From contig CALRDV010000001.1 of the NCBI GenBank assembly GCA_943355005.1, positions 92,632 to 156,631 of the forward strand: a stretch of 64,000 bases of DNA. The letters are read 5' to 3'. This document shows positions 8,615 through 27,383 of this stretch, piece after piece; positions within the stretch are counted from its first letter, which is position 1, and each line of letters opens with the position of its first letter. A program made the translations under genes and the position numbers. This stretch comes from Patescibacteria group bacterium. GTDB lineage: Bacteria > Patescibacteriota > Microgenomatia > UBA1400 > MFAQ01. The notes beneath the pieces were generated by a model. It was not told where the DNA came from. It saw nothing but the letters and a program-made list of their open reading frames with translations, and ran no database searches.

Positions 8615-8615
8615 T

Positions 8616-9761: not shown

Positions 9762-9769
9762 TTTTCACA

Positions 9770-9803
9770 AAAAAATCCGGCCGCGTTTTTGCGGTCGGAT
9801 TGG
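9770..9803. terminator. Bidirectional rho-independent terminator between convergent genes.
   Basis: aaaaaaatccggccgcgtttttgcggtcggatt: a GC stem flanked by an A-run and a T-run. Confidence 0.6.
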
Positions 9804-9806
9804 TTA

Positions 9807-10187
9807 TTATTCTTCTTTTGAAGCACCTTCGGCGTTTACCATTAGTTCATTTAGTTTAGATAAGACCTCTTGGTCGACTTCTCCAACGTTATACTCACCG
9901 ACTAAATATCCAATTGGTGAGTAATCGTGATTTTCATACCAGGGGACATATTCAGAAGGTAATTCTGTACCATTTGTTCTGACTTTAATAATCTCAACAA
10001 TTTCACCGTGCAATATAGCATCTACAAAGTCCGGACACGGTACATATCCGTGATTTGAGATATAGTGACAAGTCATTTTGTATACCAGATATTTATACAA
10101 ACGCTCATGTACTTGAATAACAATCTCTACATCGGCAGCTTCCTCTTCCTTCAATCCCTTACACAGTCCGCAAGCTCTAAAAGCCAT
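9807..10187 (-). CDS. Hypothetical protein (126 aa, Cys-containing).
   Basis: ORF of reasonable size that ends just before the convergent terminator. Confidence 0.4.
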   Translation of the reverse strand: MAFRACGLCKGLKEEEAADVEIVIQVHERLYKYLVYKMTCHYISNHGYVPCPDFVDAILHGEIVEIIKVRTNGTELPSEYVPWYENHDYSPIGYLVGEYNVGEVDQEVLSKLNELMVNAEGASKEE

Positions 10188-10243
10188 TTGTGCACCTCTT
10201 TCCTGTTTTTAAGGATTTTCTATCTGCTTGATTCTACACCCTC

Positions 10244-10993
10244 CTATTTTGTTAGGGCAGACCGAAGTGATAGAAATACAGTCCCGACATAGGGTGGAAA
10301 TTTTGCCGAAGCGGTGCTAGCTTCCTCAGAAGCCGGCATAAAGATGTGAACAATACCATTTTGGACATACAAGAATCGAGTTGTTACCAGCCCACTCATA
10401 TCTTTAACTTTTAGCTTTAAATATGAGGTTGAGCCTGTGGATATCTCAGAAGCACTTAGGATATCCCCACGTTTCTTCTGGTATTCATCACTCATGGCAA
10501 ACTCACCATCAAGTTTTCTGCGATACCAATCTCTCCTAGATGTACCATCATAGTAGTTTTTGGTGCCGGCATTTCCAGCAAAGACGGAACTTGAATAATC
10601 CCAAAGTTCAGTCGCAGTAGAATCATTTTGAATGGTAAACTCTGACCCGGTGAATCTAAAAGAGAATCCTGGTGGTAAAGATAGCGTGGTTTTGAAGCCA
10701 AACTGAGGGTCGGTATCTGTAAAAGATTTCCAATCGGCAGGTATAGTTGGTGCTTTTACAATTGATGTACTAGGCTTTGGTTGATTTGGAGAAGTGTCTC
10801 GGGTCTGAATTTGTTCAGGCAGATCTTTTTCATCTAGCATGTCTAAATCACTTTTTCGATTATTCTGGGAGACATAATACCCCACAAGCCCAAAAAACAC
10901 TCCCAAAACGAAAATGGTGGTGAAAACAGGGAAATTTTTTGCTGACAACATTTTTGACAAGCTCTTCATAGAAAACAATGTTTCTTTCTTCAT
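10244..10993 (-). CDS. Hypothetical membrane-anchored protein (N-terminal TM, extracytoplasmic domain).
   Basis: TM 'FPVFTTIFVLGVFFGLVGYYV'; no recognisable catalytic motif. Confidence 0.5.
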   Translation of the reverse strand: MKKETLFSMKSLSKMLSAKNFPVFTTIFVLGVFFGLVGYYVSQNNRKSDLDMLDEKDLPEQIQTRDTSPNQPKPSTSIVKAPTIPADWKSFTDTDPQFGFKTTLSLPPGFSFRFTGSEFTIQNDSTATELWDYSSSVFAGNAGTKNYYDGTSRRDWYRRKLDGEFAMSDEYQKKRGDILSASEISTGSTSYLKLKVKDMSGLVTTRFLYVQNGIVHIFMPASEEASTASAKFPPYVGTVFLSLRSALTK

Positions 10994-11020
10994 AGAACCA
11001 TTATATTACCAAGCATATTG

Positions 11021-11091
11021 TCGGGGTACTCAGAATTGAACTGAGATCGCGCGCACCCCATGCGCGCATACTACCGTTATACTATACCCCG
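11021..11091 (-). tRNA. tRNA-Pro (anticodon GGG), 71 nt, no encoded CCA.
   Basis: Folded by hand: acceptor CGGGGUA/UACCCCG, D-arm GUAU-AACGGUA-GUAU (with G-U pairs), anticodon stem CGCGC/GCGCG with loop AUGGGGU (U33, GGG, G37), T-arm CUCAG-UUCAAUU-CUGAG, discriminator A. Confidence 0.7.
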
Positions 11092-11120
11092 AATCGAACC
11101 TGTCAATTTTACCACTTATT

Positions 11121-11145
11121 CGTCATTGCGAGTTTCGTTATTTAG
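11121..11145 (+). repeat. Truncated copy of the GTCATTGCGAG-type repeat.
   Basis: cgtcattgcgagtttcgttatttag. Confidence 0.5.
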
Positions 11146-11174
11146 AACTTTGTTCATTCAGGGAATTATGTATC

Positions 11175-11202
11175 TTGCGAAAATAACCCAAATAGTTATA
11201 AT
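11175..11202 (+). promoter_or_regulatory. Sigma70-like promoter upstream of recA (TTGCGA-N16-TATAAT).
   Basis: ttgcga at 11175-11180, tataat at 11197-11202. Confidence 0.45.
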
Positions 11203-11231
11203 GGCTTTAGTTAACAAAATACCCGAAGAAA

Positions 11232-12293
11232 ATGCCAAAGAAATCCAAGAAAGATAAAGAAGCCAAGTCCGTCGGTGAACACGTAGATAACTCAGCCCGT
11301 CTTACTGCAGTCAAAATCGCCATGCAGCAAATTACCAAGCAGTTCGGCGAAGGTGCCATTATGCATATGGGTTCCGATAAGGTTGGTGAAAAAATTCCCG
11401 TCATTTCTTCCGGCTCTATTAGTTTGGACTTGGCTCTTGGTATCGGCGGCTTTCCACGCGGTCGTATAGTCGAGATTTACGGCCCGGAAGCTTCCGGTAA
11501 GACGACAGTCGCACTCCACGTCATCGCTGAAGCCCAGAAGGCCGGTGGCATTGCTGCCTTTATCGACGCTGAGCATGCTGTGGATCCGAATCGAGCCAAA
11601 TCTATCGGAGTAAATTTGGACGAACTTCTTTTATCACAGCCGGATAACGGGGAACAAGCCCTGGAAATTGCCGAAACCCTAATTCGCTCAGGCGGAGTAG
11701 ACGTGGTAGTCATTGACTCTGTTGCCGCTTTGGTACCCAAATCCGAAATCGAAGGCGAAATGGGAGACTCCTCCATGGGTCTTCAGGCCAGACTTATGAG
11801 TCAAGCTCTTCGAAAAATCACTGGTGCCATTGCCAAAAGTAAATGTATTGTCATTTTTACGAACCAGCTTAGAGAAAAGATTGGTGTGATGTTTGGCAAT
11901 CCGGAAGTCACTACCGGAGGTAAAGCTCTTAAATTCTATGCATCCATCCGTATCGACATGCGCAAAATCGGCAATATTCAGGAAGGCGATGAAATTATTG
12001 GCTCTCGTCACAGAGCCAAGATAGTGAAAAACAAAGTTGCTTCGCCCTTTAGAACCGCCGAGTTCGATGTTCTAAATGTTGGAGGTATAAGTAAACTAGG
12101 GGATCTTATCGATACTGCTATTGCCTACAATGTACTTGAGAAAGCCGGCTCCTTCATCAAATACGAAGGTGAGACACTTGCCCAAGGACGAGAATCGGCC
12201 AAAACCACCCTGGCAGAGAGACCGGAAATGATTGAGAAAATCAAAGTTCAAGTCATGGAAAAGGTAAATGCAGGAATTCAGCCGGAAAAGTGA
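11232..12293 (+). CDS. recA: Recombinase RecA
   Basis: Walker A 'GPEASGKTT'; typical RecA blocks '[21 protein letters not shown]', '[50 protein letters not shown]'. Confidence 0.95.
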
Positions 12294-12747
12294 TTTTAGG
12301 CAGTCTCTAGTTAGCTACGCAGCCAAGATATTAGTAGCTAGGCCCTATTTTCGGGCTAAGCTAAGGGATAAGCTTTTCTTGAGGGCTGAGAAATTCAATT
12401 TCTTAGATCCTTCAGGGGTTATAGATTCAATTTTGGACGATTTGTCCAAAAGTGGTTATCTAAACGATAAATACCTTGCCGAAGCTTTTGTTCGTAGACA
12501 GCTTTCCAAGGGTTATGGTCCCAAGATTATCTCCTTAAAGTTAAAATTTCTTGGATTAGATCGGGAAATTATCTCTGAAGTCTTAAAATCTCAAGCTTAT
12601 GAAGAGCTGGAAGTTGACTCAATTAGCCGATATTGCCGAAAATATCCCCGAGTAGACCCGAGGAAACTGATCTCCAAGCTCTACCAACGAGGCTACAATA
12701 GCCAGGCAATCAAAAAAGTATTTGACTCAGACTGGTTAGAAGACTAA
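12268..12747 (+). CDS. recX: RecX-like regulatory protein (overlaps the recA 3' end).
   Basis: Conserved recA-recX synteny; helical repeats '[40 protein letters not shown]'. Confidence 0.6.
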
Positions 12748-12844
12748 AATACAGATACTAATCAAGTTGGTCAATCAAAATTACGCAATGTACGAACTCA
12801 AATTAAACAAAAAAATACCCTTTTCTCCTGCTAAGTGGCAGTTT

Positions 12845-12867
12845 GGTCGCTAAAGCGACTTGTTTTT
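12845..12867 (+). terminator. Rho-independent terminator after recX.
   Basis: ggtcgctaaagcgacttgttttt. Confidence 0.55.
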
Positions 12868-12916
12868 GCGTGTTTGGTGGTTCAACTACGGTTAGATTTA
12901 ATCATTAATCTAAACC

Positions 12917-14494
12917 ATGTCCATACTCTCAATTTTTAGGTCAAATATTTTCAAGAATTACTCCTCCAAGGATAAAACAAAACCTGTAGCCTCAGTTTCC
13001 GCACCTGAGCCAAAAGCTCTGGTTCAAGAACCGGCAAAAGTAGCTCCTGCGGTAGTTCAAGCCCCTTCGGTAGATACAGCCGCCATCATCGCCGCCGCTC
13101 AAGCAACCGCTCAGTCCCAGGCTCGAGAGATTATCATTTCAGCCAAGGATGAAGCTTTTAAGCTCAAAGATCAGGCTATCAAAGACGCCCGTATTCAGCT
13201 GGAAGAAATCGAGGTCAGAGCCAAGAATTTAGCCACCAAACAACAGAGTATTACAGCTATAGAAGATCAGCTTAAGAGAGAAAAGACCAACATTGATACC
13301 CAGACTAAGCAAGTCGAAGAGCTTAAGGCTAAAATCGCTACCCAAGCCGATTCCATGGTCGAAAAGCTGGAAAAGATAGCTTCTCTTACCACCGAACAAG
13401 CCAAAAAGGAGCTTATCTCCATGGTCGAGAAAAGAGCAGCTGTTGAAGCTGCCAGAGCGATCAAAGAGTCTGAGGAAAGAGCCAAGATAGTTGCAGAGGA
13501 CCAAGCTAGAGAAATCCTTGTAGATGCCATGAAATCGGGTGCCACCGACTACGTTGCCGAATATACTATTTCTACCGTTCCAATCCCGGACGAAGAAACC
13601 AAAGGTCGTATTATTGGTAAAGATGGACGAAATATTCGCATTTTCGAAAAAGTTTCCGGCTGTGACGTTTCCATGGACGACGGTCCCGACGAAGTTAAGC
13701 TGAGCAGTTTTGATCCGGTCCGGAGAGAGATTGCTCGCTTAACATTAATTCATTTAATTAAAGATGGCCGTATTCATCCAGCTCGTATCGAAGAATACTT
13801 CGAAAGATCAAAGAAAGATGTTGAACAAATTATGTTTCAAGAAGGTCAGAAGCTTTGTCACGCTGTCGGTGTTTACAATATGAATAGAGAAATTATCCAA
13901 ATGTTGGGTCGTTTCAAATTCCGAACGTCTTACGGCCAAAACATGATTAGTCATACCTTGGAGGAGACAAGAATCGGTATCAAGATAGCAAGCGAGGTTG
14001 GAGCCAATGTTGACACTGTTCGCATGGGGTGTCTCTTACACGACATCGGAAAAATTATCGAAGGCGACGGAAATCACGTTGAGCTTGGAGTTGCCTATCT
14101 TAAGAAATTTAATATTCCACAGACCATTATTGACTGTGTGGCTCAACATCACGAAGATGAAGAGTTCACTTCAAATGAATCTGTCATTGTTTACATTTCC
14201 GATGCTATCTCAGGTAGTCGCCCCGGCGCTCGTCATGAAAATACCGAAGAATACGGTAAACGCATTCGACATCTGGAGGAAATTGCCCGCAAACACCCTG
14301 AGGTCGATGATGCTTATGCCATCTCAGCCGGACGCGAGATTAGAGTCATTGTTAATCCTAGTAAAGCAGGAGACGAGCAATTAATTATCTTGGCTCAAGC
14401 CATTAGGGATGAAATCAGGGACACTATGACCTTCCCAGGCACCGTCAAGGTGAACGTTATCCGCGAAACTCGTGCCAGCGAAATCGCCAGCTAA
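12917..14494 (+). CDS. rny: Ribonuclease Y (KH + HD domains).
   Basis: KH 'GRIIGKDGRNIRIFEKVSGCDV'; HD 'LLHDIGKIIEGDGNHVELGVAYLKKF...AQHHEDEE'; long coiled-coil N-terminus. Confidence 0.85.
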   Translation: MSILSIFRSNIFKNYSSKDKTKPVASVSAPEPKALVQEPAKVAPAVVQAPSVDTAAIIAAAQATAQSQAREIIISAKDEAFKLKDQAIKDARIQLEEIEVRAKNLATKQQSITAIEDQLKREKTNIDTQTKQVEELKAKIATQADSMVEKLEKIASLTTEQAKKELISMVEKRAAVEAARAIKESEERAKIVAEDQAREILVDAMKSGATDYVAEYTISTVPIPDEETKGRIIGKDGRNIRIFEKVSGCDVSMDDGPDEVKLSSFDPVRREIARLTLIHLIKDGRIHPARIEEYFERSKKDVEQIMFQEGQKLCHAVGVYNMNREIIQMLGRFKFRTSYGQNMISHTLEETRIGIKIASEVGANVDTVRMGCLLHDIGKIIEGDGNHVELGVAYLKKFNIPQTIIDCVAQHHEDEEFTSNESVIVYISDAISGSRPGARHENTEEYGKRIRHLEEIARKHPEVDDAYAISAGREIRVIVNPSKAGDEQLIILAQAIRDEIRDTMTFPGTVKVNVIRETRASEIAS

Positions 14495-14496
14495 AT

Positions 14497-14568
14497 CGTC
14501 ATTGCGAGGAACGAAGTGACGTGGCAATCCAGGAATTGTCATCCTCGCGAAAGCGGGGATCCATCTGG
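14497..14568 (+). repeat. Two adjacent palindromic repeats, B-type (GTCATTGCGAG...GTGGCAATCCAGG) followed by A-type (GTCATCCTCGCGAAAGCGGGGATCCATCTGG).
   Basis: cgtcattgcgaggaacgaagtgacgtggcaatccaggaattgtcatcctcgcgaaagcggggatccatctgg. Confidence 0.8.
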
Positions 14569-14657
14569 ATAAGTAATTGATAAACTTGCACGAGACGTAT
14601 TTAGATGGTAACATCAGTTAAATTATTATTAAAGTTTCTGCCCGGAAAGAGGAATTA

Positions 14658-14933
14658 ATGACCAAACAGACCCTTATTAACATCGTCAGTAAGAAGGTTC
14701 ACTTGACCAAGAAAGCCGTCAAGGAGACAGTCGACTCATTCTTTGAAGAATCCATTGCCGCCTTGGGCAAAGGTGAAAAAGTCGTCATCTCAGGTTTCGG
14801 AACTTTTTACATCGGTAAAGTCGAAGATAAGCAAGTAGTTCCTTTTGGAAACGAAAACAAACGTCAAGTTGTCAAAGGTCATAAGGTTATCAACTTTCAT
14901 GTTGGAAAACCTTTGAAGAAGAAAGTTGCCTAA
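14658..14933 (+). CDS. hup: HU-family DNA-binding protein.
   Basis: HU signature 'VVISGFGTFYIGKVEDKQVVPFGNENKRQVVKGHKVINFHVGKPLK'; RBS 'aagaggaa' 6 nt upstream of the ATG. Confidence 0.85.
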   Translation: MTKQTLINIVSKKVHLTKKAVKETVDSFFEESIAALGKGEKVVISGFGTFYIGKVEDKQVVPFGNENKRQVVKGHKVINFHVGKPLKKKVA

Positions 14934-16096
14934 TGCCTTCAGTTTTCATAAATACTTTTGGTTGCCAAGCCAACAAATCAGATTCAGAAAGACTTCTGGG
15001 TGATTATCTTGCCCGCGGTTACTCAGAAACTTCCAATTGGCGGGAAGCAGACGAAATCGTCATCAATACCTGTTCTGTTCGACAATCAGCGGAAGACCGT
15101 GTTACCGGCTTCCTCCTAAATGTTGATAAATATTTCCTTGGCCTCCCCGCCGTGGAGGGCAAACCCAAACCAAAAATTATACTTACCGGCTGCATGCTCC
15201 ATTTTAACGAAAAGGAGATCAAAGCTCTTTTGCCTCAGATAGATGAAATTCTTCCGATAAGTGAAGTAGGTTTCAATCAAAAGGCAATCCGTAAGGATAA
15301 AGATAAAGCTTTTATTCCCATTTCTTCGGGCTGCAATTCCTTCTGCACCTTCTGTATCGTTCCTTTTTCTAGAGGTAGAGAGAGGTCTCGACCATTAGAA
15401 GACATAGTTAAAGAAGTCGAAGAGCTGGCAGCTAATGGTTACTCCGAAATAACACTTCTGGGTCAGAATGTAAATTCTTACGGCCTTGAAAAGGTGGGTG
15501 TTGCTCTTCGAAAAATGTTTATGGACAAGGATAAATTTTCTCCCGATATTATTCCCTCAAACCAGTCACAATACTTTAAGCCGGAAGACACTCCGCCATT
15601 TGTTACCTTACTAAAAGCTGTAAGCAAGATAGACGGTATAAACAAAATTAGTTTCTTCACCAGCAACCCTTGGGATTTCTGGGATGAGTTAATAGACGAA
15701 ATAGCTATCAATCCCAAGATTGATCGATTTATTCATTTGCCGGTCCAGTCAGGTAGTAATCGTATTTTAAAGCTGATGAATAGGGGATACACAAGAGAGT
15801 CATATCTAACTTTAATTAATCAAATTAAAGCCAAGGTCTCTGATGCGGTTTTTGGCACCGACATTATCGTGGGATTCCCTGGTGAAACAGATGAGGACTT
15901 CGAAGAGACTAAGAATCTTATTATGGAAGTTGACTTCAAAGTTGCTTTTGTAGCTAGATATTCACCCAGACCCGGAACTGCTTCGTCCAGGCTTTACCCT
16001 GACGATATCCCTGCCAAAGTAAAGAAACAGCGTTGGGAAATTCTCGATCAAATCGCCAATAAGGATAACTTAAAATCCCGCCCCATAGTCCCATAA
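14933..16096 (+). CDS. miaB: MiaB-like radical-SAM tRNA methylthiotransferase (no TRAM domain).
   Basis: UPF0004 N-domain 'INTFGCQANKSDSER'; radical SAM 'CNSFCTFCIVP'; adjacent to miaA. Confidence 0.7.
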   Translation: MPSVFINTFGCQANKSDSERLLGDYLARGYSETSNWREADEIVINTCSVRQSAEDRVTGFLLNVDKYFLGLPAVEGKPKPKIILTGCMLHFNEKEIKALLPQIDEILPISEVGFNQKAIRKDKDKAFIPISSGCNSFCTFCIVPFSRGRERSRPLEDIVKEVEELAANGYSEITLLGQNVNSYGLEKVGVALRKMFMDKDKFSPDIIPSNQSQYFKPEDTPPFVTLLKAVSKIDGINKISFFTSNPWDFWDELIDEIAINPKIDRFIHLPVQSGSNRILKLMNRGYTRESYLTLINQIKAKVSDAVFGTDIIVGFPGETDEDFEETKNLIMEVDFKVAFVARYSPRPGTASSRLYPDDIPAKVKKQRWEILDQIANKDNLKSRPIVP

Positions 16097-16113
16097 ATAA
16101 ATTTAACAACAAC

Positions 16114-16263
16114 GTGTCATTCCGAGCGAAGTCTAGGAACCTGCCTGCCGGCAGGCAGGTCTCCCTCCACCCGTCATTGCGATGAGCGAAGCGTGGTGGC
16201 AATCCAGGAAGTATAAAATCAATAATATCTGTCATTCCGGGCTTGACCCGGAATCCATCCGGG
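16114..16263 (+). repeat. Intergenic cluster of three palindromic repeats (A-type, B-type, A-type) plus a CTGCCGGCAGG / CTCCCTCCACC sub-motif.
   Basis: gtgtcattccgagcgaag...ctgcctgccggcaggcaggtctccctccacccgtcattgcgatgagcgaagcgtggtggcaatccagg...ctgtcattccgggcttgacccggaatccatccggg. Confidence 0.8.
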
Positions 16264-16286
16264 AAATATAAAATGGTAAATATTAA

Positions 16287-17297
16287 ATGAAAAACATACT
16301 CGTCATCTGCGGTCCAACGGCCTCAGGCAAAACCTCCCTCGCCCTCTCCATCGCCAAAGAAATTTTTTTCCCTCGCTCAAGTGTCATTCCCGACCCGCTT
16401 CGACGTAGCTTCAGCGAGGCGAGCCTGATCGGGAATCCATCTGGTAAATCAGTCCACATCCTCTCCGCCGACTCCCGCCAAATCTACAAAGGTCTCGACA
16501 TTATCACGGGCAAAGATATCCCGGCAGACTTGCCGTCTAATATAAAGTTCTTTGGCCTAGACCTAGTGAGTCCAAATCAAGTTTTCAATGTGTCTGATTT
16601 TGTTGCATATTCCCAAAAAATAATTACAGATTCAGCCGAGCAAAACATCCCCTTAATCATTGTTGGAGGTACAGGTTTGTATCTAAAAGCTATCACATCA
16701 AATCTTTTAGATGTTCACGTTCCGCCTGATAAGGAGCTCCGCTCAGAGCTGGAAAAATTAACCCTTTCAGATCTAAAAAAAAGACTGGAAGAACTAAATC
16801 CAAGCAAATATTCTTCTCTTAACAATTCCGATCTAAACAATCCCCGTCGCCTCATCCGTGCCATCGAAATCTCATATTCCTTCAAGCAAACTAACGTCAT
16901 TCCGGGCTTGACCCGGAATCCAGAACAATTTCACGACCAAAATCAAAACTTCCTCTGGCTCGGTCTAAAAGTCGATAAGCAAATCCAGGAAAACAAAATC
17001 CACCAACGGGTACTGGACCGTTTAGAAAACGGCGCCATTGACGAAGTCAAAAAGCTCATACCACACTATCCGGATACCTCGCTACCCATTCACTCTAGTC
17101 TTGGAGTAAAGCAAATCAAAGAATATTTAGCGGGGAATATATCCAAGGAACAGTTAACAGATTTGTGGACCAAAGTCGAAGTTGATTATGCTCGTCGCCA
17201 AATGGTCTGGTTCAATAAACAAAGTGGGATAGTTTGGTATGATAAAGATAGTATTAATCAGGAGTTGGTTGCATCTCTAGCAGAACAATTAAAATAA
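16287..17297 (+). CDS. miaA: tRNA dimethylallyltransferase MiaA, carrying two in-frame palindromic-repeat insertions.
   Basis: P-loop 'ICGPTASGKTSLAL'; 'ILSADSRQIYKGLDIITGK', 'IIVGGTGLYLKAITSNL'. Inserted peptides 'SSVIPDPLRRSFSEASLIGNPSG' and 'NVIPGLTRNPEQ'. Confidence 0.85.
   Translation: MKNILVICGPTASGKTSLALSIAKEIFFPRSSVIPDPLRRSFSEASLIGNPSGKSVHILSADSRQIYKGLDIITGKDIPADLPSNIKFFGLDLVSPNQVFNVSDFVAYSQKIITDSAEQNIPLIIVGGTGLYLKAITSNLLDVHVPPDKELRSELEKLTLSDLKKRLEELNPSKYSSLNNSDLNNPRRLIRAIEISYSFKQTNVIPGLTRNPEQFHDQNQNFLWLGLKVDKQIQENKIHQRVLDRLENGAIDEVKKLIPHYPDTSLPIHSSLGVKQIKEYLAGNISKEQLTDLWTKVEVDYARRQMVWFNKQSGIVWYDKDSINQELVASLAEQLK
16383..16444 (+). repeat. Composite A-type palindromic repeat inserted in-frame inside miaA, between the P-loop and the SADSRQIY motif.
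   Basis: gtcattcccgacccgcttcgacgtagcttcagcgaggcgagcctgatcgggaatccatctgg; 62 bp, not a multiple of 3, so the surrounding sequence must compensate to keep miaA in frame. Confidence 0.8.
16896..16923 (+). repeat. A-type palindromic repeat inserted in-frame inside miaA, encoding VIPGLTRNP.
   Basis: gtcattccgggcttgacccggaatccag. Confidence 0.85.
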
Positions 17298-17298
17298 A

Positions 17299-18294
17299 AT
17301 GCTTAAAAAGAAACACATCACTTTCGATATCTCTATTGGCAGTATTTTTTGGATCCTTTTTTCTCTAGCTCTTGTATACATACTTATCAAGCTTACAGGG
17401 GTCATCATCCTTCTCTTTACAGCCATTCTCATTACCCTTGCTATATGCCCTTTAGTTGACTGGTTAGATAAATACAAAATAAAAAGAGGAATATCTGCAA
17501 TATTAATTTTATTATTGATTTTTGGTTCCATTATTACAATTACAATTTCCATAGCGGCTCCTTTAGTAGAGCAAACGCAGCTATTCTCTCAAAGACTTCC
17601 TGAAATTATTGATAGAGTTAGTCCCTTAAAGTTCGTAGATGGTTCATTTAGTACACAGTTTGCAGCAGTTCCAGGCAAAGTCTTAAACATTGCACTCGAC
17701 ACCTTCTCGGGATTTATCACGGCTTTCACAGTAATAGTTTTAAGCTATTACATGATTCAAGAGATGCACAATCTCAAAAAGTATCTTACTTATTGGTTTG
17801 GAGAAAAAGGACTTACTTACAATACCATCGCCGAGAAACTCGAGGTCCAAATTGGTAACTGGGTTAGAGGTCAACTTCTACTCATGCTTATCGTTGGCTT
17901 CTTAAGTTATCTTGGCTACCTCATTATTGGTATTCCCTTCGCTCTGCCGTTAGCGTTTTTTGCCGGTCTATTGGAGCTTGTACCAAATATCGGGCCTACA
18001 ATCGCGGCTATTCCTGCTATCTTGGTTGGATTTTCAATCTCCACTAACCATGGAATAGCAGCTCTGATTGTTTGTTTGGTCGTTCAGCAATTAGAAAACA
18101 ATCTAATTGTGCCGAAAATCATGCAACAGGTGACCGGTCTAAATCCAATAATTACCATTATCGCTATCATGATTGGCTTCCAGGTCGGTGGTCCGCTTAT
18201 GGCAGTTCTTGCTTTGCCGGTTGTCCTCTCAGCAAGAGTAATTTTCAGTCACATTAGCTTAAACAAAGACACCACCATCCCCGAAATAGACTAA
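17299..18294 (+). CDS. AI-2E family (PerM/UPF0118) transporter-like membrane protein.
   Basis: About 8 TM segments; the motif layout (conserved segment '...ELVPNIGPTIAAIPAILVGF...') is typical of AI-2E permeases. Confidence 0.65.
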   Translation: MLKKKHITFDISIGSIFWILFSLALVYILIKLTGVIILLFTAILITLAICPLVDWLDKYKIKRGISAILILLLIFGSIITITISIAAPLVEQTQLFSQRLPEIIDRVSPLKFVDGSFSTQFAAVPGKVLNIALDTFSGFITAFTVIVLSYYMIQEMHNLKKYLTYWFGEKGLTYNTIAEKLEVQIGNWVRGQLLLMLIVGFLSYLGYLIIGIPFALPLAFFAGLLELVPNIGPTIAAIPAILVGFSISTNHGIAALIVCLVVQQLENNLIVPKIMQQVTGLNPIITIIAIMIGFQVGGPLMAVLALPVVLSARVIFSHISLNKDTTIPEID

Positions 18295-18296
18295 AA

Positions 18297-18902
18297 ATGA
18301 AATCGCTTTCTTGTATTTGCTTGTTGGATAACGCGTCCGAAGAGAAAATTTCATCACTAACAAAAACTCTTTCTAGTGAAACTAATTCAAAAAAGATGCT
18401 ATCTTATCCACCACATCTTACTCTTCGTGGTGACTTTGAAATTAAAGATGAAAATATTCCTATTTTGATTTCTGATCTTTCAGACGTAGCTTCACTTCAA
18501 AAAAAGATTGTTGTTCAAACCTCTAAATTCGAATTCTATCCTTGGAAAATGGTTTCTCTGGAAGTAATAAGCAATTCTGCTCTGGATAATTTACACATCA
18601 TGGCTATGGACACAATTCAAAAATATCGAACTGCTTGGATTCCACAAGTGCTAATAGATAACACTTCCGATTACACAGAAAAACAGAAAGAATATATCCA
18701 CGAGTTTGGATACCAATTTGCGTATGAGTATTTTTCTCCACACTTTGGTTTGGCAGGCAATGATATGACTCAGGAAATTTTTGACACCATCAAAGTCAAA
18801 TATCATAATCGGGAAGAAAAAATAAATGTATCTTTAGAAAAAATTGCCTTAATCGATAGGGAAAAGAATAATCAGCCAATCGCCACTTTTTCACTTACAT
18901 AA
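18297..18902 (+). CDS. Hypothetical protein (201 aa).
   Basis: There is a single 'HLTL' motif, but no second H-x-T/S-x motif, so I do not call it a 2H phosphoesterase. Confidence 0.4.
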   Translation: MKSLSCICLLDNASEEKISSLTKTLSSETNSKKMLSYPPHLTLRGDFEIKDENIPILISDLSDVASLQKKIVVQTSKFEFYPWKMVSLEVISNSALDNLHIMAMDTIQKYRTAWIPQVLIDNTSDYTEKQKEYIHEFGYQFAYEYFSPHFGLAGNDMTQEIFDTIKVKYHNREEKINVSLEKIALIDREKNNQPIATFSLT

Positions 18903-18910
18903 AACCAAAA

Positions 18911-18926
18911 AGAACCCTTTCGGGTT
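18911..18926. terminator. Bidirectional hairpin terminator. On the minus strand it reads GAACCCGAAAGGGUUC + UUUUU at the rnpB 3' end; on the plus strand it follows 18297..18902.
   Basis: aaaccaaaaagaaccctttcgggttc. Confidence 0.6.
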
Positions 18927-19236
18927 CCCTAGGACAATAAGCCGGATTCTGTCGTGGAGGAATATCTATCTATGCTCGAGACTTTAGGGACGGAAAAGAC
19001 ACCTTAATCCCAATTCGTCGATTGCAGCAGGGCGGGTTACCACTCCTCTAGGATTTCTCCTAGCGGATCTCCACCTAGCGGTGGAACGTTTCACCTTTAA
19101 TCGTCTCTGTGGCCCTATCGTGCCCTGTAGGTCGCCCCACAAGGAGCCGGGTTTCCCCGGCCACCCTTTCTTTTAGCTGTCCGGACTTTCCTCCCCACTC
19201 TTGCGAGTAGGGCATTCCTCTCGTCCTAGGGAAGCC
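18921..19236 (-). ncRNA. rnpB: RNase P RNA (bacterial type, reduced size, about 316 nt).
   Basis: The minus strand contains P4 5' strand 'GGAGGAAAGUCCGGAC', P4 3' strand 'ACAGAAUCCGGCUUA', 'AAGGUGAAACG', 'GGUAACCCGCC', and a P1 helix UCCCUAGGAC/GUCCUAGGGA. High GC in an AT-rich genome. Confidence 0.8.
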
Positions 19237-19238
19237 TA

Positions 19239-19247
19239 ATTTTACCA
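19239..19247 (-). promoter_or_regulatory. Extended -10 (TGGTAAAAT) promoter for rnpB.
   Basis: Minus strand '...ttgtggtaaaattaggCUUCCC' lies immediately upstream of the P1 5' end. Confidence 0.35.
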
Positions 19248-19328
19248 CAATTTTGCTGATAAAACCCATAGTAAGTCCTAGATAGTGTATAATATACAAG
19301 TAGGCACATTAAGTTCAAGGAGTATGCG

Positions 19329-19628
19329 ATGGCTCATTTTTTCAATCCAAACGAATTCCCTGCCGGTTATAAGTTCATAGTGCAAATTTTCTCAACGACA
19401 TATATCCACCACGAGGCTGATCGACGCTCAATAGAAGCTCCAGGTCACGGATATCCTGCTCATGACGAACCAATCCATCAAGTAGAACAGATTGCTCTCA
19501 AGGATGAAAAAGAGCTTCAAGAGGAGTTGCAAAGACTGTACACCAAGGACAAAAACCGAAAAGATATCTTGGTTTTGGAAATTAATCGGGTTGTTCCGGT
19601 CGGAGTCTCGGTTCAGGTTGATTTCTAA
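19329..19628 (+). CDS. Hypothetical protein (99 aa).
   Basis: Strong RBS 'aaggag' 6 nt upstream; a -10 'tataat' at 19283-19288; followed by an intrinsic terminator. Confidence 0.5.
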   Translation: MAHFFNPNEFPAGYKFIVQIFSTTYIHHEADRRSIEAPGHGYPAHDEPIHQVEQIALKDEKELQEELQRLYTKDKNRKDILVLEINRVVPVGVSVQVDF

Positions 19629-19634
19629 AAATTA

Positions 19635-19661
19635 AGCCAGGTATAAAGCCTGGCTTTTTTA
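19635..19661 (+). terminator. Rho-independent terminator.
   Basis: agccaggtataaagcctggcttttttt. Confidence 0.7.
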
Positions 19662-19706
19662 CACTATGAAATCACTCATAGTATTTATTTGATATGATAA
19701 GAGCAT

Positions 19707-20396
19707 ATGCAACCAAACGTACTCTTATCTTTCCAAAGCTCGTTCTCTTTAGCCGCCAACCAAGTCCTGGTCGGCATTATTAGTTTCTTGCCAAACATCT
19801 TAGGTGCCTTAGTTCTTTTCCTTGTGGGTTGGATAATTGCCGATTGGCTAAAATCTCTCACAACCAAAGTCGTAAATATCACCAAATTAGATGCTTTGAT
19901 AAATAATCCGGCCGTTAAAGATTTTCTGAAGAATGCTCAAGTTTCACAAAAATTGGAAGTAATCATCGGAGAAGTTGTGAAGTGGCTAGTCATCACTTTA
20001 TTCTTTGTCGCCAGTATCAATCTTCTCGGCATCACCTCCATTAGTTTGTTTTTAAATGGAATTATCGCCGGCATTCCCACACTTATCGCCGCCGTCTTAA
20101 CACTCGTCATCGGCGTCGTCGTTGCCGGCTTCTTGGAGAAGATGGTAAAGGGTTCCTACGGTTCCAAAGATGCTTCCACCGGTCGCTTTATCGGTAAAGC
20201 TGTCAGTTACGCCGTCATGACTTTCTTCGTCCTAGCCGCCCTCTCACAGCTTGGCATTGCCAGCTTCTTCATCAACACTGTCTTTATTGGCTTTATCATG
20301 GCCATTGCCTTAGCACTCGGGATTGGTCTGGGTCTTGGCTCCAAAGATCTCATCAAAAAAATATTAGAAGACTGGTACAAGAAAATCGAGAAATAA
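19707..20396 (+). CDS. Membrane protein with conserved TM-helix repeats (MscS-N-terminal-like).
   Basis: Repeated hydrophobic helices such as 'ALVLFLVGWIIADWLKSL...'; 4-5 TM segments. Confidence 0.5.
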   Translation: MQPNVLLSFQSSFSLAANQVLVGIISFLPNILGALVLFLVGWIIADWLKSLTTKVVNITKLDALINNPAVKDFLKNAQVSQKLEVIIGEVVKWLVITLFFVASINLLGITSISLFLNGIIAGIPTLIAAVLTLVIGVVVAGFLEKMVKGSYGSKDASTGRFIGKAVSYAVMTFFVLAALSQLGIASFFINTVFIGFIMAIALALGIGLGLGSKDLIKKILEDWYKKIEK

Positions 20397-21142
20397 TGAT
20401 CAAATTTTCTGAGTTTAAAAAGTTTTTCATTTTTAACCTAATTGGTAGTCTGGTCATATCGGCAATCGTTGCTGTAATTACAGTTCTATTGGGGAACTTT
20501 AACGAAGTAGCTTTTAAAGTTTTAATCACTTTGACCATGGTGGTTTCTCATTCTCTAGTCAGTCTAGGTTTCATTTGGGATGACGAAAGACAAAACACTT
20601 TCGATAGATTGGCTTATTTTTCCGATGTTCTTTTTGTTTTAATTGTTTCCAGTTTTGTTACTTCTATCTTTGGCGTATGGAGTTTAATATCCAGTGAGCT
20701 GGTTTGGCATTTATATCAAACATTCTTTGTTATTGGATTTGCCTCGCTTCACGGAGACATTTTATCTAAAGTACTTGGTAAGGAAACCTATATAGATACT
20801 ATTGTTTACATCAATTATTTCTTCATGGCCGTTCTAGTCTTATTGTTATTGCCTGCTATTTTTATCACCGATTCAGCCAAGATTTTAGGTGAAATGTATT
20901 TTAGAATAATGGGTGCAGTTGGAATCATTGACGGAACTCTAAGTGTCCTCACAATTATTTTCTACAAGCTTTATATACTTAAGCATCCACAGACTCAAAA
21001 CTTGCTTTCTGGGGCAGCAGAATCAGCTCCAGTGGCTCAAAAGAGGGGACTCTCAGTCTGGGTGTGGATTTTAATATTCTATCTGGCCATTCAAATAATT
21101 TCCTCGCTAATGTTTGGTGTCTTCTCTCGGCTCAGTCTTTAA
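20396..21142 (+). CDS. Hypothetical polytopic membrane protein.
   Basis: 6-7 predicted TM helices; start overlaps the upstream stop (ATGA). Confidence 0.5.
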   Translation: MIKFSEFKKFFIFNLIGSLVISAIVAVITVLLGNFNEVAFKVLITLTMVVSHSLVSLGFIWDDERQNTFDRLAYFSDVLFVLIVSSFVTSIFGVWSLISSELVWHLYQTFFVIGFASLHGDILSKVLGKETYIDTIVYINYFFMAVLVLLLLPAIFITDSAKILGEMYFRIMGAVGIIDGTLSVLTIIFYKLYILKHPQTQNLLSGAAESAPVAQKRGLSVWVWILIFYLAIQIISSLMFGVFSRLSL

Positions 21143-21154
21143 TATACTAGCCAC

Positions 21155-21194
21155 CAAAAAACCCGGGGTCGATTTCTCTCGCTCGGGTTTTTTG
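21155..21194. terminator. Probable bidirectional terminator.
   Basis: aaaaaacccggggtcgatttctctcgctcgggttttttg. Confidence 0.45.
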
Positions 21195-21209
21195 AACGTG
21201 ACAAGTAGT

Positions 21210-21350
21210 TTACTTGGCGCCGATTTTAAACATCTTTGTTCCACAGGTGGGGCAAACAGCTTTAACGGCTGGTTTACCATTCTTCATGGTGACTCTCTCG
21301 AATTCGGTTACGTCTTTTTTGGCTCTACATTTTACACAATAGATCTGCAT
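21210..21350 (-). CDS. Small zinc-ribbon protein (46 aa: MQIYCVKCRAKKDVTEFERVTMKNGKPAVKAVCPTCGTKMFKIGAK). It is below the ORF-track size cutoff.
   Basis: Two CxxC pairs; strong SD on the minus strand (AAAGGGGGTGA about 8 nt before the ATG). Confidence 0.6.
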   Translation of the reverse strand: MQIYCVKCRAKKDVTEFERVTMKNGKPAVKAVCPTCGTKMFKIGAK

Positions 21351-21378
21351 TTACTTGGTTCACCCCCTTTCCTATTTT

Positions 21379-21639
21379 TTAGTGCCTGGATAAATAATTC
21401 CAAATTGCAAGCTCCAAGGCTAGGACAAGCATAGTCAGGAGTAATGTCTTTGTCAAGTCTGTTTTGAAAAACTTCTTTTCTCCTGGCAGAAGTTCTGGAA
21501 TAGAATATGGCTTTTTTGCGCCCACTCCCAGCCATTCATCTTTAATTACAAAGCCTTCGGTTCTCTGTTTTCTTTCTTGACTGTGAACTTTTTCTTTTTT
21601 GGTTTTTCTCTGTCTGCTCATGGTTAATATTATATCCAC
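21379..21639 (-). CDS. Hypothetical small basic protein with a C-terminal hydrophobic segment.
   Basis: ORF only; a competing overlapping frame exists (21332..21535). Confidence 0.3.
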   Translation of the reverse strand: MDIILTMSRQRKTKKEKVHSQERKQRTEGFVIKDEWLGVGAKKPYSIPELLPGEKKFFKTDLTKTLLLTMLVLALELAIWNYLSRH

Positions 21640-21646
21640 AAGCTGT

Positions 21647-21709
21647 CCGTCATTGCGAGGAGGTATTCCGACTGTTTACCCCGGCCAGCAGGCGGGGTGG
21701 CAATCCAGG
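21647..21709 (+). repeat. B-type palindromic repeat with an extended inner segment.
   Basis: ccgtcattgcgaggaggtattccgactgtttaccccggccagcaggcggggtggcaatccagg. Confidence 0.8.
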
Positions 21710-21747
21710 TTTTTAGATAAGGATTTATAGTAAAATAAATTCACTCT

Positions 21748-22203
21748 ATGGTGTTTACCTATATTTTTTACGGAATTATTCTAATCTGGATTTCCACTCT
21801 AACCTATTTAGTTATTCGTCTGATGCGTCACTATAGTCGCCTTACGGCCGATGTTTCCAAGAAGGATCTTATCTCAGCCTTAAATCACTTAATCTCCACT
21901 TCCGGACAGAACACGGACGACATTCGTACCCTTCAGGAGAAGTTGGATAGGGAAATAACAAATAACAAAAAACACCTCCAGAGATTAGGCTTCCGCCGCT
22001 ATAATCCCTTTACGGATACCGGCGGAGATCAGAGCTTCTCAGCTGCCTTTTTAGATGATAATGGTGACGGCATTATGATAAGCTCTTTACATAGTCGGGA
22101 AAATACCCGGCTTTATGCTAAGAAGGTCGATGGAGGAAAAGTTACCACCCAGGCCTTATCCAAAGAGGAACAAGAAGTTATCAATGAAGCAATAAAAAAT
22201 TAA
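21748..22203 (+). CDS. DUF4446-like protein (N-terminal TM, conserved 'YNPFTDTGGDQSFSAAFLDDNGDGIMISSLHSRENTRLYAK').
   Basis: Motif recognised from the DUF4446 family; assigned from memory and not verified. Confidence 0.45.
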   Translation: MVFTYIFYGIILIWISTLTYLVIRLMRHYSRLTADVSKKDLISALNHLISTSGQNTDDIRTLQEKLDREITNNKKHLQRLGFRRYNPFTDTGGDQSFSAAFLDDNGDGIMISSLHSRENTRLYAKKVDGGKVTTQALSKEEQEVINEAIKN

Positions 22204-22210
22204 ATATCTT

Positions 22211-23419
22211 ATGAAATTCACACCTAAAATCATTATTTCATTGGTCTTAACTTTTTTTGTTTCTGCCGGTATGGCCTACGCTGTTGTTCCAGCAAGTGGG
22301 GGAGGTTTGCTTTCTCCAAGCGCCGAAGGACCTGTTACCGAGAAAAAATCTGCCGGTTTTGGTCAGTTTGCTGACGAGCCAAAGACTCAAGCTTGTCCCA
22401 TCAATGGCAAACTTTACACCAAATCGGAAGAAAAGCTTTGGCAAACCAAACGCCCCATTCTTGCCATGATTGAAAATGATATTCACGCCCGTCCCCAGTC
22501 GGGACTTTCTTCGGCCGATGTTGTTTACGAAGCGGTCGCCGAAGGTGGCATTACACGTTTCATGGGAGTTTTTTACTGCGGAGCTCAAAGTGATGCAGCT
22601 AAAGTTGGCCCGGTCAGAAGCGCCAGAATTTATTTCGTAAACATCGCTGCCGAATACAACACTCCTGTTTATTTACACGTCGGTGGTGGTAACTGTAGTC
22701 GTGACGAAGCTAGTGGCCAGTGCACATCCAATAAGAAAGCTTGGGCCATTGAAGAACTTTCTAAATTGGGCTGGAGAAAAGCCGGCGGTAATGATTTTGA
22801 CACTACCGGAGACACTGGCGCACCTGTACTTTTCAGAGATTACAATCGTTTAGGCGCCGATGTCACCTTGGACACGGAACACACTATGGTAGGTTCCCTT
22901 CCTGCCGCCTGGAGGCAAGCTGAGAAACGTGGTTATGGTAGTTTGATGGTCGATGGTAAGACTCCCTGGCTCACGGGCTTCAAGCCTTGGAAAAATGGCA
23001 CTGTTGAAATCAAAGGCAAACCCGCTGTAGATATCGCTTATGATTTTTGGAGCAACTACAAAGATTTTACTGTCACCTGGAAATACGATGCGGTCACCAA
23101 AGAATATATCCGCACTCAAGGTGGTAAGCCACAGATGGATTTAGAAGTTAACAAACAAATTTCTTCACCAAATGTTGTCATTCAATTTGCCAAAGAAGAA
23201 GGTCCTCTAGACGAACACAAACATATGTTCTATACCGTTATTGGTAGCGGGACAGGAATTTTCTTCAACGGCGGACAAGCTATCGATATCAAATGGAGTA
23301 AAGCCACTCAAACAGGTCGAACCATATTTACAGATCTTGCCGGAAAAGAAATTACTTATACACCCGGTGCCATCTGGATAAGTATTTTACCCATTGCGAA
23401 CAAAGTCGTATACAATTAG
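22211..23419 (+). CDS. Secreted DUF3048 (YerB-like) protein.
   Basis: Signal peptide; 'RPILAMIENDIHARPQSGLSSADVVYEAVAEGGITRFMGVFY' resembles the DUF3048 N-domain. Confidence 0.5.
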   Translation: MKFTPKIIISLVLTFFVSAGMAYAVVPASGGGLLSPSAEGPVTEKKSAGFGQFADEPKTQACPINGKLYTKSEEKLWQTKRPILAMIENDIHARPQSGLSSADVVYEAVAEGGITRFMGVFYCGAQSDAAKVGPVRSARIYFVNIAAEYNTPVYLHVGGGNCSRDEASGQCTSNKKAWAIEELSKLGWRKAGGNDFDTTGDTGAPVLFRDYNRLGADVTLDTEHTMVGSLPAAWRQAEKRGYGSLMVDGKTPWLTGFKPWKNGTVEIKGKPAVDIAYDFWSNYKDFTVTWKYDAVTKEYIRTQGGKPQMDLEVNKQISSPNVVIQFAKEEGPLDEHKHMFYTVIGSGTGIFFNGGQAIDIKWSKATQTGRTIFTDLAGKEITYTPGAIWISILPIANKVVYN

Positions 23420-23422
23420 GGG

Positions 23423-24004
23423 GTGGCAAAGCTATCCGATTTAATCATTTCTAAGGTTCGCGTCAAGCTTCTAAAACTTTTTCTTTCTCAGACAAAGGAA
23501 ATGTTTTATGTGCGTCAGCTCACTAGAATCACAAAAGAAGAAATTAACGCTATCAGAAGAGAGCTTGATCATCTGCAGAAAGCCGGACTTCTAAAAAGTG
23601 AGAAAAGAGGTAATCGTCTTTATTATTCCGTTAGGCCCACCTTCACACTTTATCCGGAAATTACCAACTTAGTTATGAAATCCACCGGCTTTGGCCGTCT
23701 AATTATCAAAAACCGCAGCAAACTTGGTTTTGTGAAATACGCCTTCGCCTCCCAAAAGTTAGCCCGAGGCCTAGCTAGAGACCCCGAAGAGGTAGATCTT
23801 ATGATAATAGGAAAAGTTATTATGCCCCAACTTGCACTTCTAATTAAACAGATAGAAAAAATGCTAAATACCGAGCTGAACTATTCTTGTATGACGGAGG
23901 AAGAATTTAATTATCGAAAGTCCCACAAAGATCCTTTTATTGTCAAAGTACTTCTTCAATCTCGAATTACTTTGATAGGGGATGAAATTCAATTACTAAG
24001 CTAA
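23423..24004 (+). CDS. Winged-helix DNA-binding protein with a possible nucleotidyltransferase-like C-domain (GTG start).
   Basis: wHTH 'EEINAIRRELDHLQKAGLLKSEKRGNRLYYSV'; 'EVDLMIIGKV' resembles the NTase aspartate motif; RBS 'aggggg'. Confidence 0.45.
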   Translation: MAKLSDLIISKVRVKLLKLFLSQTKEMFYVRQLTRITKEEINAIRRELDHLQKAGLLKSEKRGNRLYYSVRPTFTLYPEITNLVMKSTGFGRLIIKNRSKLGFVKYAFASQKLARGLARDPEEVDLMIIGKVIMPQLALLIKQIEKMLNTELNYSCMTEEEFNYRKSHKDPFIVKVLLQSRITLIGDEIQLLS

Positions 24005-24204
24005 TGCCAATTCAAAAAATTTTAAAGGTAGGTAACTCACTTGGAGTTACTCTCCCGTCAAACTTGGTCAAAAATCTATCTCTCAAGCCGGGGGATCAAG
24101 TAGAAGTTGTTTATGATTTGAACAATACATTGACTTTTAATTTTATCGATAGTCATCAGCTTAGTTTGGGCCTATCTTCCGGCAGAAAATCAGCCAAAAA
24201 ATAA
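24004..24204 (+). CDS. SpoVT/AbrB (MazE-like) swapped-hairpin domain protein.
   Basis: 'KVGNSLGVTLPSNLVKNLSLKPGDQVEV'; translationally coupled to the upstream gene (TAATG). Confidence 0.5.
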   Translation: MPIQKILKVGNSLGVTLPSNLVKNLSLKPGDQVEVVYDLNNTLTFNFIDSHQLSLGLSSGRKSAKK

Positions 24205-24217
24205 TATAATCCTTAAT

Positions 24218-25567: not shown

Positions 25568-25680
25568 CGCGGCAATCTATATTCGTCATTCCTGCGAAGG
25601 CAGGAATCCATAAAAACAAACACAAATTAATATTAAATCGTAATAATCTGTCATTCCCGACCTGATCGGGAATCTATAAA
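25545..25680 (+). repeat. Cluster of three palindromic repeats (B, A, A types) between secD and secF. The first overlaps the last codons and the TGA stop of secD.
   Basis: cgtcattgcgaggaacaaagtgacgcggcaatct ... ttcgtcattcctgcgaaggcaggaatccataaaa ... ctgtcattcccgacctgatcgggaatctataaaa. Confidence 0.8.
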
Positions 25681-25701
25681 AATAAATTCAACTAAAAAAA
25701 C

Positions 25702-26556: not shown

Positions 26557-26578
26557 TATCGCAAATATATATTTCGTC

Positions 26579-27274: not shown

Positions 27275-27383
27275 TGTTTGTTTTTTTCTAATTCTATAAT
27301 CCTATTTTTCTCGATCTATCTTAACATTTTGTTGACCTAGTCACCTCTGAGGCTATAATATTAGATCTGTCTAGTGGGGTTCA

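Follow-up and report, generated by a model that had tools for sequence, protein, structure and literature searches.

How does the gene of a conserved tRNA-modification enzyme come to carry two different repeats inside its reading frame, and do these repeats serve the protein or are they only tolerated by it? The question was raised by miaA, which encodes tRNA dimethylallyltransferase, in a stretch of 64,000 nucleotides from a Patescibacteria group bacterium (assembly GCA_943355005.1, contig CALRDV010000001.1, positions 92,632 to 156,631), hereafter the window. An earlier note on the letters of this stretch had described an essential gene with a 62-bp composite repeat and a minimal 28-bp repeat, and had proposed that insertion was recurrent. 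We found that both inserts were copies of the CGTC-tagged repetitive extragenic palindromes (REPs) known from other bacteria. They are very probably independent copies, carried as tolerated selfish or neutral passengers that selection has filtered, and not functional modules of the enzyme.

The first point to settle was the integrity of the gene. The frame of miaA was open over 336 codons in the translated list of open reading frames (ORFs), and its product matched the Pfam family IPPT with E = 5e-50, covering profile positions 1-243 of 243. Its sequence matches in the PDB were the MiaA entries 2qgn, 3d3q and 2zm5, and MiaA crystal structures ranked top when the modelled product was searched with Foldseek. 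In an alignment of 29 MiaA sequences that included the window protein, the family residue was kept at 56 of the 56 invariant columns, among them those of the P-loop, DSRQ and GGTGLY motifs. The best named homologues came from Candidatus Collierbacteria, with the nearest relative ~60% identical. Judged by sequence and model, the gene looks functional and MiaA with both inserts is most likely still active. The proposal of two different in-frame repeat copies inside an intact miaA was thus borne out, as both were read through, the Pfam match ran the full length and the invariant columns were kept. The essentiality of the gene is, on the other hand, not known to hold, as miaA knockouts of Escherichia coli are viable (PMC9303304).

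The two inserts differed in structure. The one at site 2, CGTCATTCCGGGCTTGACCCGGAATCCA, was 28 nt long, just as the note had it, with an in-frame part (GTC..CCA) of 27 nt that formed codons 204-212. Its tag was CGTC and its tail CCA, the 8-bp stem (ATTCCGGG/CCCGGAAT) enclosed a CTTGA loop, and the RNA of this minimal unit folded at -12.2 kcal/mol (z = -3.4). The insert at site 1 was a composite of TGTCATTCCCGAC, 30 nt and CTGATCGGGAATCCA, in which an outer 8-bp stem (ATTCCCGA/TCGGGAAT) stood between a TGTC tag and a CCA tail. Its outer loop, a 5-nt CCTGA, was interrupted by the 30-nt nested hairpin, and its outer arms were identical to an intergenic 28-nt unit at 25649..25676. The composite nature and the nested hairpin therefore stood, but the length did not: the composite measured 58 nt, not 62, of which 57 nt were in frame as codons 33-51. 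Including a 3' extension, it covered 70 nt from the tag and 69 nt (23 codons) in frame. The 30-nt nested piece was also considered as a repeat in its own right and rejected, as it was unique in the window (no second copy was found there with 3 mismatches allowed) and resembled other nested pieces only in its position and hairpin nature.

Both segments were recognized as insertions because of their excess length over orthologues. The spacer between the GKT and DSRQ motifs was 45 aa in the window MiaA, as compared with 18 aa in 77 and 22 aa in 12 of 120 homologues, and the spacer between NPRR and FxWxG, most often 25 aa long in the same set, was 33 aa. When the window MiaA was aligned by BLASTP with the repeat-free orthologue P0013, gaps of 27 aa and 8 aa fell exactly at both repeats. 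Set against orthologues whose spacer had 22 aa, site 1 was a clean addition of 23 codons (VIPDP...SGKS), and site 2 was a clean addition of 8 or 9 codons. An AlphaFold2 model built on 29 orthologues had a mean predicted local distance difference test score (pLDDT) of 84 and a predicted template modelling score of 0.77. Its pLDDT was below 50 only at residues 32-36, 38-51 and 204-211, and these segments coincide with the two inserts apart from residue 37 of the first. The first of these segments was situated between the P-loop helix (H15-27) and strand E56-61, in the alpha1-beta2 turn, ~6 residues upstream of the conserved Asp of the SADS motif. The second was situated between H186-202, at the end of the helical insertion domain, and H212-215, in the linker back to the core. 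The HMMER alignment to the crystallised MiaA proteins placed its own gaps at both insert sites. Model and alignment thus agreed with the suggestion that the inserts occupy loops.

What kind of element had been inserted was apparent from the other copies. A scan for hairpins with a tag returned ~26 CGTC-tagged units in the window, or ~1 per 2.5 kb. The pattern GTCATTCC-N11-GGAATC matched exactly 8 times, with 0.00 matches expected from 100 shuffles, and the exact 27-mer of site 2 occurred 6 times. In an alignment of 12 units, similarity started sharply at (C/T)GTC after unrelated 5' flanks, and it ended at CCA or, in a subset, at CCA followed by TCYGG(R/W)AA. The tag began with C or T and went on with an invariant GTC, while the tail was CCA in 11 of the 12 units (both miaA units among those with CCA) and CTA in one. 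The stem had 8 bp with A-T and T-A as its first pairs, which both miaA units fit, and the loop had either 4 nt (GAAG, GAAA, GAAT) or 5 nt (CTTGA, CCTGA). Stem positions 6-8 covaried between variants (GGG/CCC, CGA/TCG, TGG/CCA, TGC/GCA and AGC/GCT); these compensatory changes were read directly from the sequences, as units with 4-nt and 5-nt loops were out of register in the alignment (A2). Since the inner stem varied with matching changes on both arms, it is the hairpin that is conserved.

These features are those of the CGTC-tagged REPs, which have been described with a CGTC or TGTC tag, a stem of 8-9 bp starting with AT, a loop of 4-5 nt and a CCA tail (PMC3733652). The same superfamily was said to include RPE-4 and RPE-6 of Rickettsia conorii and dRS3 of Neisseria (PMC3733652). 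By their sequence, the miaA repeats agree with the published definition point by point and are not a new element. In-frame intragenic units and ORFs hit twice have likewise been described, with tRNA-modification and repair genes among the hosts (PMC3733652). What is new is the host, a lineage of the candidate phyla radiation (CPR)/Microgenomates, with miaA as the host gene of a known phenomenon. The published hosts belonged to five phyla (Proteobacteria, Chlorobi, Bacteroidetes, Spirochaetes and Thermotogae), and CPR phyla were not listed (PMC3733652). A literature search returned no later paper describing CGTC REPs in CPR, and a search for the repeat-coded peptides (AFAGMT, VIPAKAGI and others) returned no papers. 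A known class of tolerated in-frame selfish DNA is thereby extended to a new lineage.

Other identities of the repeat were considered. A miniature inverted-repeat transposable element was rejected, as the unit was a single hairpin of 27-28 nt and the flanks of the 12 units had no consistent direct duplication; a 3-nt GTC was present on both sides at miaA site 1 only. Rfam gave no match at the gathering threshold and none at E <= 1 over 16000-17400. The exact 27-mer GTCATTCCGGGCTTGACCCGGAATCCA, identical to miaA site 2, was present in at least 120 metagenome contigs (L010-L129) with guanine-plus-cytosine (GC) contents from 36% to 66%, and it formed opposite-orientation pairs in 66 of the 70 multi-copy loci. 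That a short palindrome is so extremely conserved among organisms that are evidently unrelated suggests that a conserved factor recognises it or that it has spread horizontally.

The distribution of the units in the window indicated how genes respond to them. Only 7 or 8 of the 26 units were genic though ~91% of the window was coding (binomial p ~1e-13). Directly upstream of miaA was a gene (14933..16096) for a MiaB-like radical-SAM methylthiotransferase (UPF0004 + Radical_SAM, 387 aa). The spacer between the two genes (16097..16286) was 190 nt in the window versus 4 nt in the repeat-free locus L005, and it was filled by three units, the last of which was identical to the unit at miaA site 2; in REP-free relatives the two genes were 4 nt apart or overlapping. 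Depletion in genes and a filled spacer are the signature of insertion followed by purifying selection.

The genes that did contain copies were all open, with intact Pfam domains on either side of the insert. In four other host genes of the window, copies were located at the N-terminus, between Pfam domains or just past them; in gltX, the copy was inside a domain. The copy in the gene of the CCA-adding enzyme, for instance, fell between the PolyA_pol head domain (Pfam 32-140), which it closely followed, and the RNA-binding domain (211-270). All six genic copies of the ATTCC/ATCC type shared the codon boundaries GTC-ATT-CC. (sense at 16383, 16896, 6839 and 39923; antisense at 33352 and 49652), the sense copies reading VIPGLTRNP-like peptides and the antisense copies WIPGQARND. 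This agreement is unlikely by chance (roughly p = 0.03), because a second stop-free phase exists on each strand; orthologues outside the window do use the other phases.

We found further support for repeated insertion in the orthologues. Expansion was seen in ~19 of 113 homologues at site 1 and in ~32 of 107 at site 2, and every expanded orthologue whose DNA was fetched had tagged palindromes at these sites, all of them forward relative to miaA. The occupants were of ATTCC, ATTGC or GTAG type and coded for different peptides (Table 1). Site 1 was unexpanded in P0004, P0013, P0016 and P0027 of the same clade and in outgroups, while site 2 was occupied in distant lineages down to 42% identity. 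As the two sites held different REP families and phases or none, colonisation of these loops was recurrent, in line with what had been proposed. The nested pieces recurred as well. P0011 and P0012, 87% identical, differed by an 8-aa indel within the site-1 REP, and the module CCGCTGGTACCCGAAGGGGTA was present both in an ATTGC-type REP of L004 and in an ATTCC-type REP of L001. One module in two REP types, together with the indel, identified the nested pieces as a recurring second layer; the nested insert claimed for the site-1 copy was corroborated by its 7-bp hairpin in the outer loop and by this indel.

Several individual orthologues deserve mention. P0005 (L007:6736-7917, 393 aa) had four REP units at site 1, with a diverged duplication of the beta2 segment (SSVHILSADS ... 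TRVTILSADS) between the REPs that may be a recombination footprint. The site-2 linker of P0027 (L133:3001-3918) had baseline length and contained a GTAG-type palindrome, GTAGGGGCGCATCGCGATGCGCCC (PVGAHRDAP); the site-2 linker of the MiaA family may be largely decayed REP material. P0015 was a mosaic, with its first 40 residues those of P0026 and the other 291 residues 100% those of the L001 MiaA (L001:3001-4095). The P0015 junction fell exactly at site 1. The pair P0015/L001, which had looked like a presence/absence pair for that site, was not used because P0015 is probably an assembly chimera, the other option being recombination at site 1.

Table 1. Repeat units, their host genes and the repeat types seen at the two MiaA loops of orthologues
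Feature	Coordinates	Strand	Reading or evidence
miaA, tRNA dimethylallyltransferase, intact 336-aa ORF	16287..17297	+	ORF listing, Pfam IPPT, PDB sequence matches, Foldseek
Site-1 composite CGTC-tagged REP, codes V33-P51 (VIPDPLRRSFSEASLIGNP)	16382..16439	+	arms shared with the 25649..25676 unit
30-nt nested piece (CCGCTTCGACGTAGCTTCAGCGAGGCGAGC) in the loop of the site-1 REP	16395..16424	+	own 7-bp hairpin on folding
3' extension TCTGGTAAATCA, codes SGKS, fits TCYGG(R/W)AA	16440..16451	+	12-unit alignment, repeat family D3
Site-2 minimal CGTC-tagged REP, codes V204-P212 (VIPGLTRNP)	16895..16922	+	exact repeat, fold, pLDDT
Three head-to-tail CGTC-tagged units (starts 16115, 16172, 16230)	16115..16257	+	fill the MiaB-like/miaA spacer
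Composite unit near the annotated N-terminus of ORF 6815..8614	6838..6889		nested piece, architecture as miaA site 1
ATTGC-type CGTC-tagged unit in ORF 6815..8614	7743..7772	+	SLRGTPRQS, Memo/PGA_cap junction
Exact 27-mer, antisense in the CCA-adding enzyme gene (32281..33816, -)	33351..33378	+	reads WIPGQARND
4-nt-loop unit in gltX (38687..40150)	39922..39948	+	reads VILANAGIH, within anticodon-binding domain
Unit antisense in nadE (48635..50545, -)	49651..49678	+	reads WIPGQARND, CN_hydrolase/NAD_synthase linker
ATTCC-type, phase 0, orthologue MiaA loops			codes VIPAKAGIH, VIPAEAGIH or VISGLTRNPSG
ATTCC-type, phase 2, orthologue MiaA loops			codes CHSG...DPES
ATTGC-type, phase 0, orthologue MiaA loops			codes VIASFG..NRGNLTP
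ATTGC-type, phase 1, orthologue MiaA loops			codes SLRGAKRRGNLTPP or SLRSTKCCGNL
GTAG-type, orthologue MiaA loops			codes VGAIHESP or PVGAHRDAP

These observations are consistent with tolerance of passenger DNA in miaA. Most REP insertions into genes would be removed by selection, and those in miaA would have persisted for three reasons. Their lengths keep the frame (27 nt for the unit and 30 nt for the nested piece), they would be read in a phase without a stop codon (in the CTTGA-loop unit, TGA falls in phase 1), and they would sit in permissive loops, namely the turn between the P-loop helix alpha1 and beta2 and the naturally variable linker back to the core. There the extra 19-23 and 9 residues would make up loops whose placement in the model has low confidence. 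We infer that the inserts are neutral or slightly deleterious passengers. Several points weigh against this account. Low pLDDT at the inserts is partly expected, as most alignment rows are gapped there, and is no proof of disorder. A search of 5.8 billion proteins with the window MiaA returned the source protein itself and then a next match ~60% identical, with no strain-level empty-site allele, and a scan of genome contigs for orthologous loci returned two. With the nearest homologue only ~60% identical, the order and timing of insertion were deduced from orthologues only. Finally, that these two loops were occupied again and again could be due to target preference or function and not to tolerance alone.

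How the units spread is a separate question, on which their strand polarity bears. All units were on the plus strand, where they read GTCAT..., 26 against 0 in the window (where they spanned 6838..51923) and 28 against 0 over 81.7 kb, which comprised the window together with L130 (8.4 kb to the left) and L131 (9.3 kb to the right). Nine of them were located where the genes are on the minus strand (43-52 kb), and 2 ran antisense within a gene. The units were arranged as singletons or head-to-tail clusters, with no head-to-head dimers, and GC skew was negative over all of the 81.7 kb, which fits a single replichore. Hairpin elements of the IS200/IS605 type insert as single strands into the lagging-strand template (PMC6006769), and for hairpin elements no other cause of such polarity is well established than single-strand transposition by Y1/HUH enzymes (PMC6006769). 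Because of the tag-plus-hairpin anatomy and the complete strand polarity, we favour, by analogy and with low confidence, the view that the units spread by a replication-coupled hairpin mechanism on single-stranded DNA (ssDNA), like that of GTAG-REP/RAYT (REP-associated tyrosine transposase) systems and IS200/IS605. This mechanism is opposed by two negative results: no Y1/HUH transposase was found in the window by tblastn with the RAYT-like protein of the related locus L008, and the published survey of CGTC REPs found no dedicated transposase (PMC3733652).

A more specific version was also considered, in which the CGTC REPs of Collierbacteria would be strictly strand-specific ssDNA elements, inserted at replication forks by an HUH-type or other hairpin-recognising enzyme beside C/TGTC, with the two MiaA loops and the Ser-rich TCG TCA codons of the linker as hot spots that are targeted and not merely tolerant. 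It was suggested by the single orientation of 28 of 28 units whatever the gene direction, and we regard it as unlikely. At the homologous point of repeat-free orthologues, CGTC was present in 1 of 5 at site 1 and in 2 of 4 at site 2, with a background of 0.1-0.3 per 30 nt. If this version were true, the missing mechanism by which CGTC REPs are mobilised could be tested in Collierbacteria; the one-strand arrangement, if it tracks replication direction, would in itself be a clue to how CGTC REPs move.

Functional alternatives to passenger DNA were weighed next to the same data. The hairpins could be kept in miaA for a role at the RNA level, such as ribosome pausing at domain boundaries, mRNA stability or coupling of the MiaB-like gene with miaA. 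The conservation of the hairpin with compensatory changes and the folding energy of the minimal unit fit this role, REPs are thought to be RNA elements in other bacteria (PMC3733652), and the copies in nadE, the CCA-adding enzyme, Memo/PGA_cap and miaA site 2 do stand at domain boundaries. However, domain boundaries are also where insertions are best tolerated, 2 of the 7 genic copies were antisense to their host, and the polarity of the units was independent of the direction of transcription. Moreover, orthologues had other REP families or none at the same sites, and consensus scans detected no terminator-like or promoter-like signal at the units. An RNA-level role is therefore improbable as the reason why the hairpins are present.

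An alternative history would have a single old insertion at each site in the ancestor of Collierbacteria, with the type of the repeat changed later by gene conversion. The site-1 inserts were indeed concentrated in one clade (the top ~35 matches), many of them shared the 3' motif GGCAATCTCACTCCACC (NLTPP), and all inserts had the same orientation. Against this, site 1 was without an insert in the four clade members named above and in all outgroups, and site 2 was occupied far outside the clade. The occupants (CGTC-ATTCC, CGTC-ATTGC and GTAG, in three phases) were not interconvertible by point mutation, and replacement by conversion would itself be another form of recurrent turnover. We consider a single insertion per site somewhat less probable still than the RNA-level role.

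The peptides themselves could have been selected, as surface loops that lend MiaA an interaction or a regulatory property. The same two loops were expanded in many Microgenomates MiaA proteins, as counted above, and altered function of REP-decorated repair and tRNA enzymes has been a published speculation (PMC3733652). But the peptides of orthologues differed completely in family, phase and length, the inserts were predicted at pLDDT < 50, the same 9-residue peptide was found in unrelated enzymes of the window, and many close orthologues had no inserts, which makes selection for these peptides very improbable. Least credible of all was an assembly or sequencing artefact, or a decaying pseudogene: the DNA comes from a metagenome assembly, chimeras can arise from repeats and P0015 seems to be one joined exactly at site 1, but the units (27-58 nt) are shorter than the assembler k = 141 implied by contig names (k141_...), the 336 codons are open with every invariant column of the 29-sequence alignment kept, and orthologues from independent assemblies have such inserts at these sites as well.

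Apart from miaA, some features of the window were recorded. The ORF at 6815..8614 (599 aa) was a fusion of Memo and PGA_cap with an ATTGC-type REP at the junction; PGA_cap was a separate gene (312-322 aa) in L005 and L008, and the Memo/PGA_cap fusion was also present in L004 and L006. It directly followed a gene at 1602..6818 for an alpha-2-macroglobulin-like protein of 1738 aa with Hint/PT-HINT (intein-like) Pfam matches. An ORF of 176 aa at 41413..41943 consisted of three tandem repeats of 159-162 nt, each with a CPxCG zinc-ribbon-like motif (families D6 and D9). The bacterial RNase P RNA, class A, was located at 18922..19232 on the minus strand (Rfam, 119.7 bits), between ORFs of the opposite strand.

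How do these units compare with known systems? The dRS3 element of Neisseria also serves as a prophage integration site. It belongs to CGTC-1 and shares with the window units an ATTCC(C)-N-GGGAAT core and the CGTC tag, whereas Neisseria units are mostly in large clusters (PMC3733652) and in-frame genic copies are not a hallmark of dRS3. The palindrome-associated transposable elements derived from IS200/IS605 are alike in their hairpin ends, lack of target duplication and replication-related orientation bias (PMC6006769), but they are longer, with two distinct ends and a known TnpA, and none of that kind was found in the window.

The GTAG-tagged REP and REPIN-RAYT systems also place a tetranucleotide tag, GTAG or GTGG, 5' of a short hairpin, but the tag of the window units is C/TGTC and they form no inverted doublets. 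A scan of the window for GTAG with a hairpin yielded no repeated family, and tblastn yielded no RAYT homologue there. In L008, which is from a related Collierbacteria, a protein of 186 aa encoded at 20064-20624 was Y1_Tnp/RAYT-like (Pfam E = 4e-6). A GTAG-type palindrome, GTAGGGGTTTCATTTATGAAACCC, was situated inside its coding sequence (VGVSFMKP) and a second copy at its 3' end, so this gene was associated with GTAG-type palindromes and not with CGTC units.

The closest relatives were the CGTC-1/CGTC-2 REPs (Di Nocera, De Gregorio and Rocco 2013, BMC Genomics 14:522, PMC3733652), which share tag, stem, loop and tail with the window units. They are also alike in having many dispersed copies, mostly intergenic and some in frame, with certain ORFs hit twice (PMC3733652). 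No adjacent transposase is described for the published units (PMC3733652), and tblastn found no Y1_Tnp-like ORF in the window, the analysis covering 64-82 kb of the genome. The published CGTC REPs are mostly head-to-head dimers with negligible head-to-tail arrangement, whereas the window units were head-to-tail or singletons on one strand. The window units differ further in that some have a nested hairpin, giving 'loops' of 26-35 nt, or the 3' TCYGG extension.

The Rickettsia palindromic elements (RPE) resemble the miaA inserts in another way, as they too are in-frame palindromic repeats in conserved housekeeping genes of a reduced genome, with tRNA-modification and repair enzymes among the hosts and with tolerated peptides. 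RPE-1, reportedly described by Ogata et al. 2000, consists of elements of 100-150 bp from another bacterial group, as compared with 27-58 nt for the window units. In-frame insertion of the RPE type without gene destruction was seen in miaA (two copies), the CCA-adding enzyme, gltX, nadE and Memo/PGA_cap. Unlike in the RPE case, two loops of a single protein have here been colonised again and again, in many lineages. This offers an unusually rich natural experiment, with dozens of MiaA orthologues that carry none, one or several repeats of three families in the same two loops. Such a set can be used to measure the insertion tolerance of a small enzyme, and it may help to separate target preference from selective filtering.

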